A stretch of DNA of 64,000 nt. Origin: Eledone cirrhosa (Eukaryota). Each line of letters starts with the position of its first letter. Positions within the stretch are counted from its first letter, which is position 1. This document shows positions 1,983 through 64,000 of the stretch, in pieces. Both the position numbers and the translations under genes were made by a program. The stretch spans positions 118,916,001-118,980,000 of the forward strand of contig OZ024745.1 in the NCBI GenBank assembly GCA_964016885.1, in the 5' to 3' direction. The notes below the pieces were generated by a model, which was not told the origin of the DNA, made no database searches, and saw nothing but the letters and a program-made list of their open reading frames with translations.

Positions 1983-2046
1983 TATTTTATTATATATATT
2001 TCAAAGGTACCAAGAAAACATTGATACGCTTTCATCAGATAAAATA
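1983..2046 (-). ncRNA. Type I hammerhead ribozyme (minimal stem III)
   Basis: Minus strand: TATTTTAT-CTGATGA-aagcgtatcaa tgttttc ttggtaccttt-GAAA-tatata-TA-ATAAAATA. Perfect 8-bp stem I, paired stem II, intact core. Confidence 0.8.
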
Positions 2047-2253: not shown

Positions 2254-2290
<37 letters not shown>

Positions 2291-2442
2291 TGCAAACGAA
2301 TCGAATGTTATTATTAATATTCGAAAAAATCTGATTACATTTATTGTATTCAGCCATGTAGAGCGGACATTTTTTTTTATTTGAATATGACAAAGTCGGC
2401 CATTTATCGCTCGTATACAGGAAACTGACTGGCCAGTCTGCT

Positions 2443-2518
2443 GATATGCAAATCTGGCTGATCAGTAGATCTGCTAAATCAGCCAGTCTGCTAATATGCA
2501 AATCAGGCTGATCAGTCA
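2443..2518 (+). promoter_or_regulatory. Duplicated octamer (ATGCAAAT) motif upstream of hammerhead
   Basis: ATGCAAAT at 2446-2453 and 2496-2503 within a duplicated GCCAGTCTGCT(G/A)ATATGCAAATC(T/A)GGCTGATCAGT block. The same motif recurs at ~28929-28951 (-). Function inferred only. Confidence 0.45.
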
Positions 2519-2571
2519 CTGTATATTTTAGAAAATAACATATATTTTCACTAGCTCTGACAGTTTGGCAG

Positions 2572-2637
2572 GTGAACAGTGAACTGTACTGATGAAGGGT
2601 GATACCCAGAAACATTAGTGTCTGTAGTTCTGTTTAC
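2572..2637 (+). ncRNA. Type I hammerhead ribozyme, GUC cleavage site
   Basis: gtgaacagt GAACTGTA-CTGATGA-aGGGTgatACCCa-GAAA-CAttagTG-TC-TGTAGTTC tgtttac. All three stems and the core are intact; stem I is extended. Confidence 0.85.
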
Positions 2638-2766
2638 ATGCCAACACAAGAGCAAGAATGAAGGGTTCATTCTACTGACATGGCTATAAAATTGAGGCTT
2701 GTTTGCATAATTGCAAACGAATCGAACGTTATTAATATTCGAAAAACTCAGATTACATTTATTATA

Positions 2767-2871
2767 TGGAGTTGCGACCAATAGAAAGTATTAGCAATTG
2801 AAAAGACCAACGGAAACAATGTTTCCGTTGGTCTTTTAAATTGCTAATACTTTCTATTGGTCGCAACTCCA
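2767..2871. repeat. Near-perfect 105-bp palindrome
   Basis: 52-bp arms centred on GGAAACA-A-TGTTTCC, one mismatch. Confidence 0.95.
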
Positions 2872-3275: not shown

Positions 3276-3452
3276 AAATACACTATACCTGGAAGTAAAA
3301 GGAGTAAAGGCCATGGTTGAAAGGCCTTTGAGCTTTATTAATCGACAAGATTCTAAACCTCATTCGTTTACCGAGTGGGGTGGAACTCGTCAAATCGGAC
3401 CAAGAAAACAATGTTTCCATTGGTCTTTCCATTGCTGATATTATCTACTGGT

Positions 3453-3673
3453 CACAACTCCTGGTAAGGGTTACAAACTCCTGGTAAGGGTTACAACTCC
3501 TGGGAGGGTTACAACTCCTAGGAAGGGTTACAACTCCTGGTTAGGGGTTACAACTCCTGGTAAGGGTTACAACTCCTGGTTAGGGGTTACAACTCCTGGT
3601 AAGGGTTGCTTAATGAAGGGTTGCTTGACGAAGGGTTGCTTATTGAAGGATTGCTTAATGAAGGGTTGCTTAA
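3453..3673. repeat. Minisatellites: ~19-21-bp ACAACTCCTGGTAAGGGTT (~8x) followed by 15-bp GAAGGGTTGCTTAAT (~5x)
   Basis: Direct reading of tandem units. Confidence 0.9.
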
Positions 3674-20648: not shown

Positions 20649-21243
<595 letters not shown>

Positions 21244-27552: not shown

Positions 27553-27607
27553 ACTGCCTGAAGAGGTCACAGCCAAAGATGGCTGTCACTGAAATATATA
27601 TAGCAGT
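27553..27607 (+). ncRNA. Type I hammerhead ribozyme followed by AATAAA
   Basis: ACTGC-CTGAAGA-gGTcACAGCCaaagatGGCTGTcACt-GAAA-tatata-TA-GCAGT-AATAAA. Confidence 0.85.
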
Positions 27608-28561: not shown

Positions 28562-29072
28562 ATAAATGGAATAGAATGAAACGAAATTTTATTTCTCACT
28601 CTTAGTACGGCACTTATACGTACTTACATATATGTATACAGACGTACAGTAGTATGTATATATATATACATACATGCACACATATATATATATGCACGTA
28701 TCGGTTTACCGAACATTTATTAAAATGCTCGGTTTGTTTGTTTGTAAACAAACAAATAGCCCGAATTACGCTGTACAGTGTTTAGGCAACCACGTCACCT
28801 TTTTGTTCAACACTGACACAGGAAAGATGTACTAGTTTCAAGCTTATTAGCTATCGTCAGCATCGTATACCTTCCTGCCAGATGGTTGAACGTCTGAAAG
28901 TATATACTTTCCTTATGCATATTAACGGCTGAGCAGCCTAATTTGCATATCGAGTGAGTTCAGTCGGCCGGGCACACCGAAAACGATAAATGGAATAGAA
29001 TGAAACGAAATTTCATTTCTCACTCTTAGTACGGCACTTACTTAAATGTACAGTATATACAGACGTACAGTA
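28562..29072 (-). mobile_element. Hammerhead-bearing ~424-bp unit with terminal direct repeat, embedded in (TA)n
   Basis: TGGAATAGAATGAAACGAAATTT.ATTTCTCACTCTTAGTACGGCACTTA at 28567 and 28991 (offset 424). Internal HHR and octamer on the minus strand. Confidence 0.72.
28826..28864 (-). ncRNA. Minimal type I hammerhead ribozyme
   Basis: Minus strand: GATG-CTGACGA-tAGCTaataAGCTt-GAAA-ctag-TA-CATC, with palindromic ACTAGT stem III. Confidence 0.82.
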
Positions 29073-29287: not shown

Positions 29288-29379
<92 letters not shown>

Positions 29380-29384
29380 TATCA

Positions 29385-30090
29385 TACCTAAGATTAAGGC
29401 ACATTTCCACCTTAACCGTTGGATCAACATAACTTAAGTTATTGACTGGGACCGACAGATTGAGAGGAAAGAGCGGACCAAGTTCCTCCAATTTCACATT
29501 GAAAACTATTACGCTTCAATGACCGTCCTTATTCTGAAGAGGGTGCTGGTCTTCACCGGACCTACCCTACAATAGAGAACCCTACATATTAGACTATCCT
29601 ACACGCCCGTTACTCTCTCCTGAGCTACGACGGGTCACATAGGGCCAAGCTGTTCCCCCGACTCCTCCTTTGATATGAGCATGGGAGCTAGTGACTCGGC
29701 GAAGATTACTGACCTGATTGGACTCTACATCCTCTCTAAATTTAAAGATCGCTTCCGAAAGTACGGAGGGGGATGTACTGCGACGACGGCCTCCTCCCCC
29801 TCACAACTGTAGCCCGCCGCTGTGAAACCGACCGAACCAGAAAGGATCTCTTGTAATTCTTCAACCTTGGATTCCGGATTACCATACGGCATCACCTGAG
29901 TTCAGTGGACTTCCATGAGGTCACACTGAACCTCAAAACCGGACTATACTACTCATACAGGATACCCGACGAGACCCGCCAATACGCCAACAGAAACTCC
30001 CACCACCTACGTTCTATAGCCAATAAGCTAACTATAAACGTCTCCAATCGAAACTCCCGGCTGTCCGCGACAGAGCAGATGTTTCTACGT
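29385..30090 (+). pseudogene. Penelope-like element reverse transcriptase fragment (Naiad-type), frameshifted
   Basis: LNRWINIT*VIDW, FLQFHIENYYASM, FDMSMGASDSAKITDLIGLYILSKF, GMYCDDGL, VDFHEVTLNLKTGLYYSYRIPD. Paralogous to 62972-64000. Confidence 0.75.
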
Positions 30091-30624: not shown

Positions 30625-32440
30625 TTCTTCTGGTTTTATAATTTCACAAAGTTTTACCAATAGAGAGAGAGTCGGTTTCTAACATAGATACAAGACTCTC
30701 TCATTGGAATTTACACAACATCAACTAGGTAGATATGTATGTATGTCTGCATGTGTAGATATGGATGTTATTGTATGTGTGGATGTGTATGTTTTGAGTT
30801 GTATGTGTGCATGTGTATATGCTTTGCATCTGTACATGTGTATATGCAGTTATTAGATGCAACATTTTTGGAATGTTTTACATATTTTTACTGTTCCATT
30901 AATGGATTGTATTTGTAATTTCCTAACTAGTTGTGTTCTTTCTGTTCCTGTGAAGCCTAGCTTCTCAAGATTTGTATTGAGGGAGTTACTAACATACTCC
31001 AGTGCCCCAATAATCACAGGCATAAATCTGAAGGTGTAATCAGGGTGGAGTATCTGCAGATTTCTCATCAGTTCTGCATAAATATTCTCGTTTTCACTAA
31101 TCTTTGATATGATATGGGTATCTGCTGTACATGCTTTCTACTGTACATGCTTTCTTCTCCCTGTCCCATATCATAATATCTGGTCTGTCATGGCTGCATT
31201 TTATTGGGGTTTTTACTGGAACATTCCCCCAGTACTCTTTCATATTATGTACATGGATGTCTTCCACATTGCTGTAGCTTTTAACGTGTTTATTATCGGG
31301 GCTATCTTTTTTACGAACTGCATTGTACAGTGTTTTGGCCACTACATCATGCCTCATAGGTAGATAGTACCGCGATGACATCTTTGGACAGCTGCTTATG
31401 ACATGGGTGACATCTTCGATGTTAATTCTGCAGAGTCTGCACTTGTTATCACATCTAGGTGTTTTGCCTGAATCCCTATCTCTTTTGTCAATCAGGTATT
31501 TCCTGTTGATTTCCTGTTCTTGGATTGCAAAAGCATATCCTTCAAAGTGGGAGCCAATATAGCGGTTGTTGGTCCAAGATAGACTACTTTCTTTATCTAT
31601 ATTACTCTCACTCTGGAGCTTCCTGGCACCATATCCATGCATGATTTTTTGATGATAAGCATGCAGTTTCTCATCCATGTATTCACTGCGATACTGCTGA
31701 GCGATTTCCCTGGGTGTGAGCTTTTGATTATCATACAGGGAATATCTCTCGAGGAGTTCCTTCCCAGCTCTCATGATCTTATCTGTTTCATGACGATAGA
31801 CTTGCTCGAGAAGCGGGCTCCTACGTTTCGAGGTTCGTAGATGTTGTCGGAGAGATGCGACATTCAAATGCTGTCTGGACTGATGTTAGGCTCTGCCTCC
31901 CTGCTTACGTTTCAAGTAAAGGCGGTCTATGTCACTGTTGATGTGGAAGTTTCCGGCGTTGTTTAGTATTTTTCGAGTTCCAACATCAACTGCTCGGATT
32001 TCGTCTATCGTCCAATTGAGTATTCCAAACGTTGGTGTTATGACAGGCACAGGAAACACATTGTGAGCCACTGTTTTGTTTTGCGAAGAGAGTTCCGATG
32101 ACCATATCTTTCTTAATCGGGTGTAGTATTCCCTGGTTACGCGTTCTTTATTACAGATACCATTATAAGATATGTTCTCATCTATCCCCAGGTATCTGTA
32201 GCAGTTCTCATCAGATATCGGTGAAACAGTTAGGCCATTGATGACAGTGCTGCTAGATTTGGTTGTTGTTTTTCTGCGCTTTACAGTCATATATGGGCAT
32301 TTATATTGGCAAAACTCCATTCCTATATCATTTGAGAACGTTGTAACCAGGTCAAGATTTTTCCTCATCCCATCCATGTTCTTGGTATAGAGTTTCAGAT
32401 CATTTTCATTTCTCTTTATTTTTCTCCAGAATGAATCCAT
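30625..32440 (-). pseudogene. 5'-truncated R4/Dong-clade non-LTR retrotransposon (RT C-terminus, CCHC finger, restriction-like endonuclease, 3' UTR)
   Basis: DLKLY..GMEF..KC..YRYLGI..DRLYLKRKQGGR; CRLCRINIEDVTHVISSC..RHDVVAK; RPDIMIWD; MPVIIGAL..IQSINGTVKICK. Broken into three ORFs by frameshifts. Confidence 0.85.
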
Positions 32441-32631
32441 ACCTTTCTAAGACATTTATTGATTATCCTCTCATATTGATTATACTCTCATATCTCTATA
32501 GATTGATTATTAATTTCAACTGAAATCCTTAATTATTCCCTTTCATCTCTTCTCATACCGGCGTTTCTCACTGATACCTCAACTCCTTTTTGAGGATGAT
32601 CAATTTGTTTACAAGAGCATATTTTTGAATA

Positions 32632-34516: not shown

Positions 34517-34555
34517 TGAACAAGTACTTTCATGCTTTCGCAATCTTCAGGTTCA
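34517..34555 (-). ncRNA. Minimal type I hammerhead ribozyme
   Basis: Minus strand: TGAAC-CTGAAGA-tTGCgaaaGCAt-GAAA-gtac-TT-GTTCA. Palindromic AAGTACTT stem III; lies in a ~200-bp island flanked by (TA)n. Confidence 0.8.
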
Positions 34556-35760: not shown

Positions 35761-35904
35761 ACATTATAACCCAAACTACTCACCAGAAGACCATCCTAGC
35801 TAGGATGCGTTTGATCATCGGTCAGTTTTACTAGAATTGATCTGGAGGTAAACAATCACAGCATAAAAGAGGAACCAATATTATATTGATATCAATTCAA
35901 TATC

Positions 35905-37450
35905 AAATATATTCTCTCTCCAGTAAAATATTTGTCAATGTCAACTATATTCTCTCTCTCCAGTAAAATATTTGCCAATGTCAACTATATTGTCTCTCCA
36001 GTAAAATATTTGTCAATGTCAACTATATTCTCTCTCTCCAGTAAAATATTTGCCAATGTCAACTATATTGTCTCTCCAGTAAAATATTTGTCAATGTCAA
36101 CTATATTGTCTCTCCAGTAAAATATTTGTCAATGTCAACTATATTCTCTCTCTCCAGTAAAATATTTGCCAATGTCAACTATATTGTCTCTCCAGTAAAA
36201 TATTTGTCAATGTCAACTATATTGTCTCTCCAGTAAAATATTTGTCAATGTCAACTATATTCTCTCTCTCCAGTAAAATATTTGCCAATGTCAACTATAT
36301 TGTCTCTCCAGTAAAATATTTGTCAATGTCAACTATATTGTCTCTCTCCAGTAAAATATTTGTCAATGTCAACTATATTCTCTCTCTCCAGTAAAATATT
36401 TGACAATGTCAACTATATTGTCTCTCTCCAGTAAAATATTTGCCAATGTCAACTATATTGTCTCTCTCCAGTAAAATATTTGTCAATGTCAACTATATTG
36501 TCTCTCCCCAGTAAAATATTTGCCAATGTCAACTATATTGTCTCTCTCCAGTAAAATATTTGCCAATGTCAACTATATTGTCTCTCTCCAGTAAAATATT
36601 TGTCAATGTCAACTATATTGTCTCTCCAGTAAAATATTTGTCAATGTCAACTATATTGTCTCTCTCCAGTAAAATATTTGTCAATGTCAACTATATTGTC
36701 TCTCCAGTAAAATATTTGTCAATGTCAACTATATTGTCTCTCTCCAGTAAAATATTTGTCAATGTCAACTATATTGTCTCTCCCCAGTAAAATATTTGCC
36801 AATGTCAACTATATTGTCTCTCTCCAGTAAAATATTTGCCAATGTCAACTATATTGTCTCTCTCCAGTAAAATATTTGTCAATGTCAACTATATTGTCTC
36901 TCCAGTAAAATATTTGTCAATGTCAACTATATTGTCTCTCTCCAGTAAAATATTTGACAATGTCAACTATATTGTCTCTCTCCAGTAAAATATTTGCCAA
37001 TGTCAACTATATTGTCTCTCTCCTGTTAAATATTTGCCAATGTCAACTATATTGTCTCTTTCCAGTAAAATATTTGACAATGTCAACTATATTCTCTCTC
37101 TCCAGTAAAATATTTGTCAATGTCAACTATATTGTCTCTCTCCAGTAAAATATTTGTCAATGTCAACTATATTGTCTCTCTCCAGTAAAATATTTGTCAA
37201 TGTCAACTATATTCTCTCTCTCCAGTAAAATATTTGACAATGTCAACTATATTCTCTCCAGTAAAATATTTGTCAATGTCAACTATATTGTCTCTCCCCA
37301 GCAAAATATTTGCCAATGTCAACTATATTGTCTCTCCAGTAAAATATAGGTCAATGTCAACTATATTGTGTCTCCAGTAAAATATTTGTCAATGTCAACT
37401 ATATTGTCTCTCTCCAGTAAAATATCTGTCAATGTCAACTATATTCTCTC
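35905..37450. repeat. ~38-40-bp minisatellite CCAGTAAAATATTTGTCAATGTCAACTATATTGTCTCT(CT)
   Basis: Direct reading; ~1.5 kb. Confidence 0.96.
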
Positions 37451-37875
37451 CCCTATATTCTATCCGAAAAGAAGGGCTGGACATACAATTAGCACACTCT
37501 GGCTCAGCACTGCGTGGATACCTGTCTAAAAAGCAACCCAGCGACAACAACAATCAATGCTCGCTGACTAACTGCCCTATCCGAAATACAGCTATGTGCC
37601 AACGGACACATGTGGTATACCGGATTGAATGCAACAAATGTAAGGAGTTCTACATCGGTAGCACGACTCGAGCAAGACTCGAGCATTAGATAATACATCA
37701 ACACACACGCATCCTTATTAATAAAACACATTGACAAATGTAGAAACATCAACCAACATATTGCTGTTACTATTAAAGAAATGTGGGCAAAGTAAGAATT
37801 AAGGAAGCCTTGCTCATACGTAGACTCAACGCGCAAATAAACAATAGATTAGAACTCAGCACACAGTACTTGACA
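37450..37875 (+). pseudogene. Penelope-like element GIY-YIG endonuclease fragment
   Basis: CSLTNCPIRNTAMCQRTHVVYRIECNKCKEFYIGSTTRARLEH, then IKEALLIRRLNAQINNRLEL. Confidence 0.8.
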
Positions 37876-40461: not shown

Positions 40462-40517
40462 TTCTGTATACTGATGAAGCATTTAAATGCCGAAACAGGT
40501 TGGCTGTTGATATAGAA
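40462..40517 (+). ncRNA. Type I hammerhead ribozyme (slightly degenerate)
   Basis: TTCTGTATa-CTGATGA-aGCATttaaATGCc-GAAA-CAGgttggCTG-TT-gATATAGAA. First stem I pair is mismatched. Confidence 0.65.
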
Positions 40518-40564: not shown

Positions 40565-40657
40565 ATATAGAAACGACTTCTACAGGACTAGAACTATACA
40601 TTCGAAGGAAATCTTCAGAATGAAACAGTTCTAGTCCTGTAGAAGCCATTTCTATAT
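40565..40657. repeat. ~93-bp hairpin
   Basis: CTTCTACAGGACTAGAACT pairs with AGTTCTAGTCCTGTAGAAG. The right arm and flank are homologous to 26391-26495. Confidence 0.88.
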
Positions 40658-41018: not shown

Positions 41019-41096
41019 CCTCGAATTAATAAGAACTAGTAAGGATCTCACATGGAGTGAGATGTAACAGTGGTTGTAAAGATACGTATGCCTTTC

Positions 41097-41172
<76 letters not shown>

Positions 41173-41771
41173 GAAAGGCACATAAATACGAACTACAACA
41201 CAAAAACACTTAAATGAAAATCACATACCCAACCCCATCAAGTGCTTTACATTACACCTTACATAACAAATACCTGCATTATCACCACATGCCTCTCTAA
41301 CAAATTGCACACTATCTTAAACGTTTATAACAATTATAACATGCTTTAACACCCCACACAAAATATGTTTATTTCAACTGCATTATAACTCTTTCCTCAC
41401 ACATGCCTTATTGACTGTATTGACTCCTACATTATACACCTATTGTCCTTGCTTGTAACTTCTTTGCTTGTGTTTTTTTGTTTGTGATTTTTTTGCTTGT
41501 GCTTTTTACTTTTACTTATACCTATTACACTTCCAACCAGTGCTGCCTGTAATTGTGTTATTTCAAGCAGAACATCTTTTCAACTCCTGACTCTCCACAT
41601 GATGCCTTTGACACTAATAACAACTATGTACCCTAAATGTTCTAAATGACTAGGATTCTAGTTACACGTTTTCAACATTCCTTATGCTCCGATGAATCCA
41701 GACTTCCCTCTGGAAGAAACAATTTCCAGCTAATAAATGTTCTAAACTAAAATTTGATCGTTTTAACACTT

Positions 41772-43764: not shown

Positions 43765-44848
43765 TAATTGGGGAGTAGCCTGAAGTTACACGGTGCCAAG
43801 TCAGGAGAGTAGAGTGCCTGTCGAATAAATGTGTTGTTCTTGACCAGGAAAGCTTGGATTGTGTAGGCGGAATGAGCGAGCGCATTGTTGTGGTAAAGTT
43901 GTCAATTCTTCGCCATCCACATGTCCAGCCTCTTTCGGTGCACAGCATCACGAAACTGACGTATAACCTCCAGGTAGTATTCCTCATTGATTATTTGACC
44001 TTGTGGTGCGTATTCCTGATCCACAATACCACAGGTGTCAAAGAAACGGGTTAACATTACCTTGACATTGCTGTGAAACTGTCGTGTATTTTGGGGCCTT
44101 GGTGATGACGGGTGCTTCCATTGGGAGGACTGGAACTTGGTTTCTGGGTTGTAATCTTAAACACATATCTCATCACCAGTAATGATGGTCTTCATTAAGT
44201 CTGGGCCGTAGTTTACACAGTCCAACATGTCCTGAGTGATTTCCATGCAGAGTTGCTTCTGTTGCTCCGCCAGTACCCAGGGGACAAATTTCACCGATTA
44301 CTCTCCACATGCACAAATATGCCATTAAAATGGAATGCACTGATCCTGTGCTTATTCCCACTTTGTGAACAATTTCCTGGATTGTTACATGACGGTCTTC
44401 CGTGATTATTCGTCGAACATTCTCAATCGACTCCTCGTTTCGGCTTGTGAATGGCCTGCTTGAGCATGCCTCGCACCCCACTGAGGTGCGGCCATGTTTG
44501 AAGCGGTGGTACTCCTCGTTGATCTGTACTTTGTCCATGGCATCATCACCAAATGCCTGCTGAATCTTCTGGATGGTTTAAGCTTAAGTGTCACCAAGCT
44601 TTTATCAAAACTTGATGCTATAACTCTGCTCGATGCGTTCAGCCATCTTGCATGAAAACGAAAATTCGACGAGCGCGTCCTACACGTCTGTATTCTAGAC
44701 GTAACAGCCGGGAATTGGTGCAGCCTACCGGCGGGAAATTTTCACGCATGCGCAGAAAATAAGGGGCGAGGGGGTGCCACGTCTTACCTAAAGAATTGTG
44801 CACATGCGGCATTAGTTTTGGCAGAATACTTTCTGAACGTATCTCGTA
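43765..44848 (-). pseudogene. Decayed mariner (Tc1/mariner) transposon, 3'-truncated
   Basis: 5' TIR TACGAGATACGTTCAGAAAGTA; MAERIEQSYSIKF**KLG; RFKHGRTSV...SRPFTS...EDRHVTIQEIVHKVGISTGSVHSIL; ITGDE; QSSQWKHPSSPRP; SPDLAPCNF. Confidence 0.9.
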
Positions 44849-46399: not shown

Positions 46400-46871
46400 C
46401 ACATAAATACACAAAGACAGTGATGTCAAACATAACTGACATTGTCGCTTATAATATAGGAGAGACAGGCATATATATGCTTCACTTCTAAATATTTTAA
46501 AAGACTGTTTAACGCACATGGTTTACAGTTTCTAGCCAGCCTCATACCCGTACTGCTAGAAATAACAGCCGTATATATCAATCTGTTCGGGATGTTTACT
46601 GAAGAGAGCTGGACAAGATATCCTTACACTTATTTATCTCGAAACATATTTGGATTTTAAAGTTTAAACTTATCTACGGAACAGGTTTGATTTAAATGTG
46701 TCTAAACATCACGGCCATTTGGCAATACTGTTTGTCTTTGTTGATTTATTATTTTAAATCGATATAGGCAGGCTGTAATATTATAATTAGTATATTTCAT
46801 TCTAGCTAACTAAATTTCTTTTGCAATATAAATGCAGATATGTTGGTATTTGTGTTTCATCATATATATTA

Positions 46872-50762: not shown

Positions 50763-50973
50763 CCAATCCACACCATTGACAAAGATATATTTGATTTGTA
50801 TATGAAATGTTTACAATTAATTTAAAGTTAAAGACATGATTTTAAAATGTTTGAAATACTGCGATAATATTTGCTCAAAATATCATTTCTCGGTATTTAC
50901 AATAAATTAAAACTTTTTAAAGATATATTAAAAGGGAAATTAAAATAGGTTACATTCGGCTAAATCCTATATT

Positions 50974-52470
50974 TTGTTTCAAAAAAGACAGCTTCAGGAG
51001 AAGTGCGTGGAACAGAGTTTGGATCTGTATCAGGTTTTTGTCGATATAACAAAAGTTTTCGAGACTGTTAACAGAAATGCACAGTGGAAGGTTCTCCAGA
51101 AACTTGGTTGCCCTGATAAGTTCCTTGCTTTGGTTAGGTCTTTCTCTGATGACATGAAGGCTTGGGTTAATGTCAGAGGTAACATGTCGGAGCCTATCTC
51201 AGTGAAAAATGTAGTGAAACAGGGGGGGGGGTATTCCAGCACCGACCCTGATTGATTACTTTGCATTCAGGAATTGCAAGCATGGTGTTTATATCTACTA
51301 TCGAACCTCTTGCAGCATACTTAACATCAGGCGCTTTGCTGCAAAACCAAAAGTATTTACGTCAATCATAAGAGACCTATTGTATGCAGATGATTGCGAT
51401 TTTGTAGCGTACACAGAGATTGATATGCAGCACATTTTGAATGTATTTTCTGATGTTTGCACTGCCCTTGGTTTGACTGCCAGTCTCAAGAAAACCGCCG
51501 TCCTGTACCATCATTCCCCTGGTAAGCAATACAATGAACCAAGTATCTGTGTATGGTAAACGACTTGGAGTGGTTGACCAGTATGTCTATCTGGGAAGCA
51601 CTGTCAATCGATACAGCAATCTTGATAATGAAATTCCACACAGTATTAGGAAAGCGAATGATGCTTTGGGAAAGCTAGAAAGGCACCTCTGAGGTCGGTG
51701 AGACATATGCAAGTAGACAAAGATAAAGGTGTACAAGGCATGTACACCTCTCTTCTTTATGCCTGCGAGACCTGGTTTACATATTGACACCACCTTAAAC
51801 AGTTGGAACGTTTCCATCAGCTGTTTCTCAGACGGATATATGGCGTTTACTGGAGGGACCACATCAGTGATGTCGAGATTTTGGAAAGCTCTCTGTGTGA
51901 AAGCATAGAAGCTCTTGTGCTTAGGCAAAGACTCCGATGGAGTAGTCACCTTGCCAGGCTGAAGGATTCTAGAATACCAAATCAACTCTTTTAAGAAGTA
52001 TAAGGATTCCCTGAGAGCTTCTTTGACAGACGCTAACATCTCTGCTGATACATGGGAAAGCGTAGCTACTGATCGTAATAAATGGAGAAAGACTGTACAT
52101 GAGGGGAAAGTTGCCTTTGAAGCATCTTGAATCACATACGAGAAATTAAAAAGGGATGTGAGGAAGGGCATTACTGTTACATTTACAAACAGCAAAGGTC
52201 CTCCTATGGCGCTGACATGCAGCGTCTGTGCGAGACTCTGCCTCAACAAAGCAGGACTCGAAAGTCATCTTCGCAGCCATAAAGTGAGACCACTGGTTGA
52301 CTACCAGGCTGCTGTCGCAGATGCTACTCATCATAGCTGTCAAGCGTGTGGAAGAGAGTGTAGATCAACAGGAGGGCTCAAACGACATGGAAAGGTAAAT
52401 GAAGACCAACCAGAGCCGGCTGTTGCCAGAATGTTTTGGTTGCCAACTCTGTGCAAGACATTTTAGATAA
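50974..52470 (+). pseudogene. 5'-truncated RTE-clade (BovB-like) LINE: RT plus C-terminal C2H2 fingers
   Basis: RQLQEKCVEQ..VFVDITKVFETVNR..KLGCPDKF..VKQG; LLYADDC; YLGST; ERFHQLFLRRI..WRDHISDVEIL..RLRWSSHLAR; CSVCARLCLNKAGLESHLRSH; CQACGRECRSTGGLKRH. Confidence 0.88.
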
Positions 52471-62684: not shown

Positions 62685-62971
62685 CAATACATACATACAT
62701 ACGATGACTCCAAACGAGAGTTTAGAAGAAACGATTGTCAGCTATTAAATGATTTGAACACAACTTTGATAATTGTATAATTTATTTATTTTCCTGCTCT
62801 GTAAAACCACTGATGTTCATAGATTGAGCTATTTCTCTTACTGGTAATAAGGTAATAAGAAATTACTGACCTTCCTGTTTATAGTTGTTTATAGTACATA
62901 CATAACTATAAATAGTATTATTATTATTTACTGCTCCATACAGTTGAGCTAACATACATTAAATTACCAGT

Positions 62972-64000
62972 ATGCTTATCAAAGATCACCTTCCTACGTC
63001 TACTAAGAACATACCAATACCACCTAAAGATACATATGAAAAATTATTGATTAATAGTGTCAACTCCTTTATCAATAGAGTGAGATGGAGGACATTCATT
63101 ACGATAGAAACCGTTCAGACAAAAACAGAGATACACATAATTTCGACAATTACGGCTTTAAAACATTTAAAAGCCCTCCTCACAACACATTATTAAACTC
63201 CTTTGAACATGATCTAATTAAACTAGTTAAGAATATAAAATGCAAAAAACATCATAATAGAAACAAAACCTTCTTAAACTACCTTAACTCCACTATTAAA
63301 GGATTTAATAAAAATAAAAAATCCTAGTGCATGCAGATAAAACTAATAATATATATATTAGCTTACGATACTTATAGAAAATTTATATATAAGGAACTGC
63401 ATAGGAACTACAAGAAAACTACTACTAAAAACCTAGAAGATATAAATATTGAAGGCCGTAATATAGTGAGTAAATTAGGACTTCAGAGACACACACAGCC
63501 ATACACCCCTAATCCCCCAAGATTCTCTCTGAAGGATCATAAAGAAGACTTCATTAGTAACCCTTCAATTAGACTGATTTGCCCTTCCAAATCTGACATT
63601 GGTACTATCAGCAAGAAAATAATGGATAGAATCATCCCATAATTTAAGCACAAAATATACCTTAACCAATGGGGAAATACGAGTGAGGTTATTGAATGGT
63701 TCAAGGGTATTAAAGAGTGTAAAACAAAAAAATTATACAATTTGATATCAATTCATAGTACACCTCTATTTCCCCTATCCTATTAAACAAGGATTTAATT
63801 ATAGCCATGAACAATAGTGACCTGACTAGATCCCAAATTGATGTCATACTTGCGGCCCGAAAAACCATAATTACATTTGAAGAACAATTATGGACCCGCA
63901 AGGATACGCATAACAACTTCGACATAACCATGGGATCTAGTGACTCGGCGCAGGTCACCGATTTGGTGGGCCTATACCTACTTAATGAAATTCATAAGAA
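62972..64000 (+). pseudogene. Penelope-like element (Naiad-type) N-terminus and RT, frameshifted, running off the window
   Basis: STKNIPIP..SFINRVRWR; NYGFKT..FEHDLIKLVKNIK; SLKDHKEDFISNPSIRLICPSKSDIGTISKKIMD; NQWGNTSEVIEWF; FDITMGSSDSAQVTDLVGLYLL. Confidence 0.85.

Follow-up and report, generated by a model that had tools for sequence, protein, structure and literature searches.

A short repeat at positions 28562-29072 of a 64,000-nt stretch of DNA (the window, whose coordinates are used throughout) carries a minus-strand hammerhead ribozyme (HHR), and a comparable repeat lies on the plus strand near the start of the window; the two are referred to here as unit 2 and unit 1. The original prediction held that unit 2 uses a minimal, dimer-type ribozyme and unit 1 a self-contained one, and that the ribozyme was remodelled within one family while promoter and hairpin modules were kept, implying selection on the RNA. 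The locus raises two questions: what kind of element unit 2 is, and whether the two ribozymes differ in how they cleave. The features bearing on both are collected in Table 1.

Table 1 Features of units 1 and 2 and of the Penelope-like relics in the window.
Feature	Position	Strand	Description
Unit 2, whole insertion	28562..29072	-	One 424-bp monomer plus partial repeat, ~1.2 units
5' copy of unit 2 terminal direct repeat	28986..29072	-	87 bp
3' copy of unit 2 terminal direct repeat	28562..28651	-	90 bp; ends at CCATTTAT into (TA)n
Octamer-containing 22-bp module, unit 2	28929..28950	-	Common to unit 1; putative promoter element or RNA hairpin
Palindromic TATA-like element, unit 2	28897..28910	-	Aligns with TATA-containing stretch of unit 1
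Extended type I HHR with long stem I, unit 2	28805..28891	-	~22 bp, 6-nt bulge on 5' strand
HHR core, unit 2	28830..28860	-	CUGACGA, U.U closing pair, 4-bp stem II, GAAA, palindromic stem III, GUA triplet
Two adjacent hairpins downstream of unit 2 HHR	28709..28756	-	Homologous to unit 1 hairpin pair
60-bp 3'-end fragment of unit 2 family	20889..20948	+	Within (TA)n
Unit 1	2288..2767	+	421-bp monomer plus 59-62-bp terminal repeat; distant homolog of unit 2
Unit 1 HHR core	2589-2622	+	
Penelope-like RT relic	29375..30084	+	Broken, 5'-truncated, Hydra-like; tblastn E down to 1e-25; translation
Penelope-like RT relic	62969-63998	+	Broken, Hydra-like; tblastn

The hammerhead ribozyme of unit 2

Read on the minus strand, unit 2 contains CUGANGA, GAAA and NUH in order, with three helices and an open end at stem I, as in a type I HHR. 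CUGACGA starts at 28860, and the proximal stem I pairs 28864-28861 with 28829-28826. Stem II consists of 4 bp (AGCU/AGCU) with an AAUA loop over a U.U pair at 10.1/11.1, a closing pair that is a published HHR variant (PMC7229834, PMC8557442). Stem III is the segment ACUAGU at 28836-28831, which in a monomer forms one base pair with a palindromic loop; N17 is A at 28830, and the predicted cut falls between 28830 and 28829. The core with its palindromic ACTAGT stem III, as originally predicted, can thus be read directly, and a strict descriptor finds it as one of three HHR loci in the window (2589 on the plus strand, 28860 and 34550 on the minus strand), against a mean of 0.01 loci over 300 local dinucleotide shuffles. 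None of 200 shuffles was as stable as its local fold (z -3.06). No Rfam hammerhead family was listed at unit 1 or unit 2 with E up to 10, so the HHR call rests on the descriptor and on direct reading; in a scan of the whole window, the best 150 of 187 Rfam matches contained only microsatellite-driven miRNA matches. On its sequence, the unit 2 HHR is real, a canonical type I ribozyme with a weak helix III. The minimum-energy fold of unit 2 sequesters the core, and the active fold costs 9.6 kcal/mol (8.5 kcal/mol in unit 1).

Anatomy of the insertion

Unit 2 is bordered by (TA)n on both sides, and its terminal repeat copies are identical in 80 of 84 aligned columns, with 2 indels. The 90-bp terminal module was also considered as a separate element inserted twice, an idea disfavoured because the end of the module runs into CCATTTATCG, which is internal in unit 1 too. 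The fragment at 20889-20948 matches the end of unit 2 in 54 of 59 aligned columns and has the same terminal base. Because both copies of the unit 2 family (2/2) stop at this base, these two ends suggest that the start of reverse transcription is fixed for each subfamily rather than randomly permuted. Such a common end is expected from internal RT initiation, which has been described together with AT-rich cleavage for a Penelope-like element (PLE; PMC11167929). The register differs between the units, with unit 2 ending 268 nt after the cut and unit 1 145 nt after it.

Unit 2 has several properties of a retrozyme repeat: it is non-coding, lies within ~150-450 bp, has one type I HHR and a GC content below 50%, and its monomer is highly self-paired. 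Folded as a circle, the unit 2 monomer has a z of -6.5 against 60 shuffles, with 67% of its bases paired, and the unit 1 monomer a z of -7.6 against 60 shuffles; such strong self-pairing agrees with the account of retrozymes in PMC7229834. Inside the unit 2 monomer there is no ORF of 100 aa, save microsatellite read-through at the edge, and no ORF lies between the repeats, where an autonomous PLE has an RT-GIY-YIG ORF between its pseudo-LTRs (pLTRs). Neither unit forms a tandem array within the 64-kb window, unit 2 being present as 1.2 units. The unit 2 locus holds a single HHR and therefore cannot release a monomer by itself; this copy is probably immobile.

Relationship between units 1 and 2

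The terminal repeat of unit 1 is identical at 55 of 59 positions and has (TA)n on its 5' side. A near-perfect inverted repeat of ~100 bp (MITE-like, 2768-2871) abuts its 3' end, and related sequence occurs near 3400-3460. When the monomers of the two units were registered at the cleavage site and aligned globally, the score was 149, compared with 71.5 +/- 12.7 for shuffles (z about 6), a score reached by none of 500 shuffles and none of 816 window segments. The best alignment is at rotation 0, with scores of 75 and 79 for the reverse-complement and reversed controls, and the units agree at 227 of 403 aligned bases (56% over aligned columns). After microsatellite masking the score is 126, with three other HHR loci at 29-72; this is only narrowly above 120, the highest score that any of 634 window segments reached against unit 1. 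One of those loci, that at 34550, had been considered as a homolog of unit 2, but its unmasked score of up to 154 was lost on masking, since it came from TA runs common to both.

With the HHR excluded the units still align (global z 3.6, reached by 1 of 500 shuffles; local z 4.8, by 0 of 500). Outside the HHR, the best local alignment to unit 1 is the hairpin-pair region at 28709-28756 (z 4.8). The upstream 96-99 nt without the core match better than all 3338 window segments, and for the downstream 140 nt 2 of 3332 segments do as well or better. Alignment is poor in the middle of the monomers, one hairpin stands at different places in the two units, and blastn between them finds only the 22-23-bp module. 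The predicted homology is therefore borne out by the score, while "one family" is a loose description at 56% identity; judged from these alignments, the units appear to be colinear, distant subfamilies rather than members of one close family.

Helix III, helix I and the mode of cleavage

The stem III of unit 1 forms 3 bp with a UUAG loop and is self-contained, as had been proposed, and the ACUAGU segments of two unit 2 copies can pair as a 6-bp duplex, which agrees with the proposed dimer type. The 10-nt stem III segment of unit 1, however, is itself fully self-complementary (10 bp with two G.U pairs) and unit 1 could therefore act as a dimer too; its self-pairing energy is -8.8 kcal/mol, compared with -4.8 kcal/mol for unit 2. 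Full self-pairing of the unit 1 type would be given by 36 of 256 tetraloops. Since both segments self-pair, a monomer-versus-dimer split between the units appears unsupported in these models. Nor does stem I separate them: it had been thought long in unit 1 only, but in unit 2 it runs from 28891 to 28805 and is of the same size, ~22 bp in each. The idea of a remodelled architecture thus holds for the 4 nt by which the stem III segments differ, and not for stem I. Under constrained folding, the double minus the single hammerhead gives -0.4 kcal/mol in unit 2 and +4.0 kcal/mol in unit 1, although the folding model cannot decide between monomer and dimer because the active folds lie 8.5-9.6 kcal/mol above the inactive fold, and nearest-neighbour energies are unreliable for this activity because they omit tertiary contacts.

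Comparison of the 8 core-nearest pairs of stems I and II between the units showed that 4 changed on both sides and 2 on one side, with 2 unchanged and 0 broken. Compensated pairs of this kind point to selection keeping the fold in the lineages that spread. The paired stems are good sequence evidence for such fold-keeping selection and not for selection for a stem III switch, so that the predicted selection on the RNA is retained in the first sense (0/8 pairs broken) but lacks support in the second. Units 1 and 2 form a convenient natural pair for comparing monomer with dimer cleavage.

The octamer module

The 22-bp octamer-containing module has 3 matches in the window, all within units 1 and 2, against 0.01 expected, and the distance from the octamer to N17 is 118 nt in unit 2 and 126 nt in unit 1. 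In unit 2 the module folds into a stem-loop. In unit 1 it is duplicated, with copies at 2444 and 2494, and a tandem duplication of ~50 bp carrying the module (2432-2517, plus strand) folds into a long hairpin. From its sequence, the module may act as a promoter or form a hairpin in the RNA; no proximal snRNA-type promoter element was identified beside the unit 2 octamer. A contig scan with the module gave bacterial matches at 3 loci, compared with 4.3 expected by chance, and these were rejected as chance because they are without flanking similarity, without an HHR core and below expectation. The newt satellite 2 promoter contains an octamer. This satellite has an internal snRNA-type promoter (PMC2220036). 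The module is the most useful lead from this locus, as the way in which animal retrozymes reach high expression is left unaddressed in the available part of PMC7229834; together with the Hydra link described below, it is worth following.

Penelope-like relics and the (TA)n target

With the ORF at 63328-63639 as query, an exhaustive search returned 834 protein relatives; tblastn places relatives of this ORF at 62969-63998 and at 29375-30084. The RT relic near 63 kb gave no match in word-indexed protein searches and only scores below 0.9 in the Atlas, and no Pfam label was found on the 7 PLE-like relatives scanned (of 834). Compared by eye, the relic at 62969-63998 agrees with Hydra-1_Obim at 20 of 34 residues; the sequence-based assignment of both relics to the Hydra clade was likewise made by eye, in the absence of a Pfam label. 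The retrozyme-typical co-existence with PLEs is seen in the window as these two RT relics, their clade being assigned by eye.

The relic at 29375-30084 lies ~300 bp from unit 2 across the same microsatellite tract and faces away from it. After it, at ~30094, a CUGAAGA half-core with stem II but without GAAA was observed. Unit 2 was considered as an inverted pLTR of this relic and rejected as such for lack of similarity: unit 2 showed no similarity to this relic or to the flanks of either relic. With 9 PLE-like proteins as queries, tblastn gave no match inside 28562-29072. The arrangement fits two independent insertions by machinery of one kind, the relic being a candidate for the kind of helper and lying outside unit 2.

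Among the Hydra families listed in File S1 of PMC8557442, 26 of 27 prefer (TA)n. By our own count of the 26 Hydra-clade HHR rows in its File S2, 14 have a U.U closing pair and 12 have A at N17. Unit 2 has all three of these traits. Two unit 2 motifs had no match in the PLE sequences of the supplement of PMC8557442, and the one match there to a unit 1 motif lay in unrelated sequence.

Other elements and hammerheads in the window

The window is AT-rich animal DNA, dense in microsatellites, and holds fragments of several retroelements; some of its repeats look octopus-like. Remnants of a non-LTR element (31097-32446, minus strand) and of a mariner-like transposase (44173-44577, minus strand, with weak HTH matches) were observed, together with an RT fragment at 50944-51255 (plus strand, RVT_1 E 3e-6). 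A GIY-YIG endonuclease remnant at 37381-37689 (plus strand) has a weak Pfam match (E 0.036) and directly follows a 40-bp tandem array at 35897-37450. Long inverted-repeat hairpin elements lie at 40570-40655 and 41084-41183, the latter with a (TA)n core.

A relaxed HHR descriptor, adjusted after the candidates had been seen, picked up 7 HHR motifs in the window, where 200 shuffles gave 0.03, and 7 motifs in 64 kb imply a very high genomic HHR density. Stem III is perfectly palindromic in 4 of the 7, which makes the dimer type the norm in the window. The motif at 34522-34550 (minus strand) is an unrelated type I HHR with a palindromic AGUACU stem III and a U.U closing pair; it sits between two (TA)n tracts and looks Hydra-clade-like by eye. 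Those at 27558-27602 (plus strand) and 1991-2038 (minus strand) have a long stem II and a palindromic AUAUAUAU stem III, and, each ending near a microsatellite, are likely PLE 3' ends. Two further HHR-like motifs, at 40471-40508 and 46599-46650 (both plus strand), are apparently decayed.

Discussion

Unit 2 is most likely a dispersed and probably immobile 1.2-unit copy of a non-autonomous, Penelope-mobilised non-LTR retrozyme, which is to say of a short repeat derived from Penelope. What is observed is the length of the monomer, its terminal repeat, the fold of the HHR, insertion in (TA)n, distant homology with unit 1 and the neighbouring Penelope-like relics; we infer the steps of the retrozyme life, namely master-copy transcription, cleavage, circle formation and the identity of the helper. 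Master tandem copies elsewhere in the genome would be transcribed, and two adjacent HHRs would form a double hammerhead by pairing of their ACUAGU segments, or one HHR would act with the aid of its long stem I. Cleavage would release 424-nt monomers, which would be circularised. The RT/endonuclease of a Hydra-like PLE would then nick (TA)n DNA and copy the RNA from a fixed internal site, and RT running past one unit would leave the terminal repeat. Units 1 and 2 would be old sister subfamilies with different RT start registers, and their stem III difference tolerated variation under selection for a working fold.

The reading closest to the original prediction, that one lineage switched under selection from a monomer-active to an obligately dimer-active ribozyme, with circles made in a new way but promoter and hairpins retained, is unlikely. 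The 1-bp stem III of unit 2 against the 3 bp of unit 1 would fit it, as would the common modules at conserved spacing and constrained folding that slightly favours the double hammerhead in unit 2 (-0.4) and two singles in unit 1 (+4.0). Both units, however, have a long stem I, the stem III of unit 1 also self-pairs over 10 bp, and one full copy per subfamily allows no test of polarity or selection. Moreover, HHR_Amex1 and HHR_Amex2 of axolotl differ in the same way, and both do better as dimers (PMC7229834), and single newt HHRs are able to cleave when helix I is extended (PMC6155905). Ribozyme differences like that between units 1 and 2 have been described before.

It is about equally improbable that unit 2 is a solo pLTR or the 3' end of a protein-coding Hydra-like PLE, truncated at its 5' side as it inserted, and does not exist as an independent circle. 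The Hydra-type HHR features, (TA)n target, fixed 3' end and RT relic 300 bp away point in this direction, but the sequence upstream of the HHR is a repeat of the element's own 3' end and not ORF sequence, and unit 2 lacks similarity to the flanks of either relic. Its HHR also stands 268 nt from the 3' end, its stem I is long and bulged where most Hydra HHRs are listed with 3-7 bp, and the whole monomer is strongly self-paired. Least likely is that units 1 and 2 are unrelated or mosaic, with only the short octamer module and generic HHR letters in common. The 56% identity, the restriction of blastn to the 22-23-bp module, the poorly aligned middles, the differently placed hairpin and the downstream 140 nt equalled or beaten by 2/3332 window segments would favour such an origin; against it stand the alignment of the remainder without the HHR (global z 3.6, local z 4.8), the upstream 96-99 nt without the core, which beat all 3338 window segments, and the monomer lengths of 421 and 424.

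A bolder extension of the retrozyme reading, which we regard as doubtful, is that the units are two old branches of an undescribed, probably cephalopod retrozyme superfamily with its own octamer-plus-TATA promoter ~120 nt upstream of the cut, (TA)n targeting through Hydra-clade PLE proteins, a subfamily-specific RT start, and a 4-nt stem III change that toggles monomer versus dimer cleavage. If true, it would give the promoter of newt satellite 2 a parallel in a distant phylum, and offer a direct test of why animal hammerheads have a weak stem III.

Comparison with known systems

Most animal type I HHRs have a helix III of 1-2 bp with a palindromic loop (PMC4209133); a short palindromic stem III is the animal default. 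Efficient cleavage of such ribozymes as dimers, taken as established in the original prediction, agrees with axolotl and newt but not with PLE motifs, which are slow and of low activity even as dimers (PMC4209133), or with Xenopus, in which 8/9 dimers showed no cleavage and 1/9 cleaved (10.64898/2026.07.22.740005). The latter source derives retrozymes from PLE pLTRs and reports dispersed monomers.

Unit 2 resembles the metazoan non-LTR retrozymes, such as those of axolotl and newt satellite 2, in being a low-GC repeat of a few hundred bp with a type I HHR and a self-paired monomer (further comparison literature: PMC6765202). Axolotl has two retrozyme families in one genome, both more active as dimers; in HHR_Amex1, as in unit 2, helix III is 1 bp long and its tetraloop palindromic, and in HHR_Amex2 helix III is stronger and helix II has a U.U pair at its base (PMC7229834). 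Newt monomers cleave with an extended helix I (PMC6155905). Unlike the axolotl and newt retrozymes, units 1 and 2 are seen in the window only as 1.2-unit dispersed copies, and unit 2 lies in (TA)n in an invertebrate host, a comparison made by description of the families only. Its monomer measures 424 bp, compared with 330-350 bp in axolotl and newt, slightly above the 170-400 nt range of retrozyme RNAs and within the 150-450 bp range of the repeats (PMC7229834).

With Hydra-clade PLEs (PMC8557442), which are present in Octopus bimaculoides, unit 2 shares the preference for (TA)n, an HHR with a U.U closing pair, a stem II of 4 bp and A or U at N17, and copies ending at one site; it differs in lacking an ORF and in its long bulged stem I. 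At 6 nt, the stem III region of unit 2 is also shorter than that of the Hydra HHRs listed, which measures 9-10 nt, a range that includes the 10 nt of unit 1. The PLE min-HHRs (PMC4209133) are like unit 2 in that positions 15.2-16.2 and loop 3 are palindromic, from which a dimer mechanism is expected. They have, however, a helix II of 7-8 bp, a short helix I, an ill-defined loop 1 and a conserved G10.1-C11.1, whereas unit 2 has a 4-bp helix II, a helix I of ~22 bp and a U.U pair; it falls outside the min-HHRs as delimited by Cervera and De la Pena 2014 and is not "minimal" in this published sense. Repeat-borne type I HHRs also occur in the Schistosoma Sm-alpha and Dolichopoda pDo500 satellites. 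Both single and double hammerhead modes have been proposed for pDo500 (PMC2837043), and Sm-alpha has an internal promoter (PMC2220036), which is of Pol III type.

No description of a cephalopod retrozyme was found in the literature searched, which covered few subscription papers, and the word "ribozyme" is absent from the available text of the Octopus vulgaris repeat paper (PMC13282606). The retrozyme class is known biology, and the family of units 1 and 2 was not found in the literature searched; with this family, retrozymes would reach a new host group and, by the HHR signature and the (TA)n target shared with Hydra-clade PLEs, would be linked to a specific helper clade.
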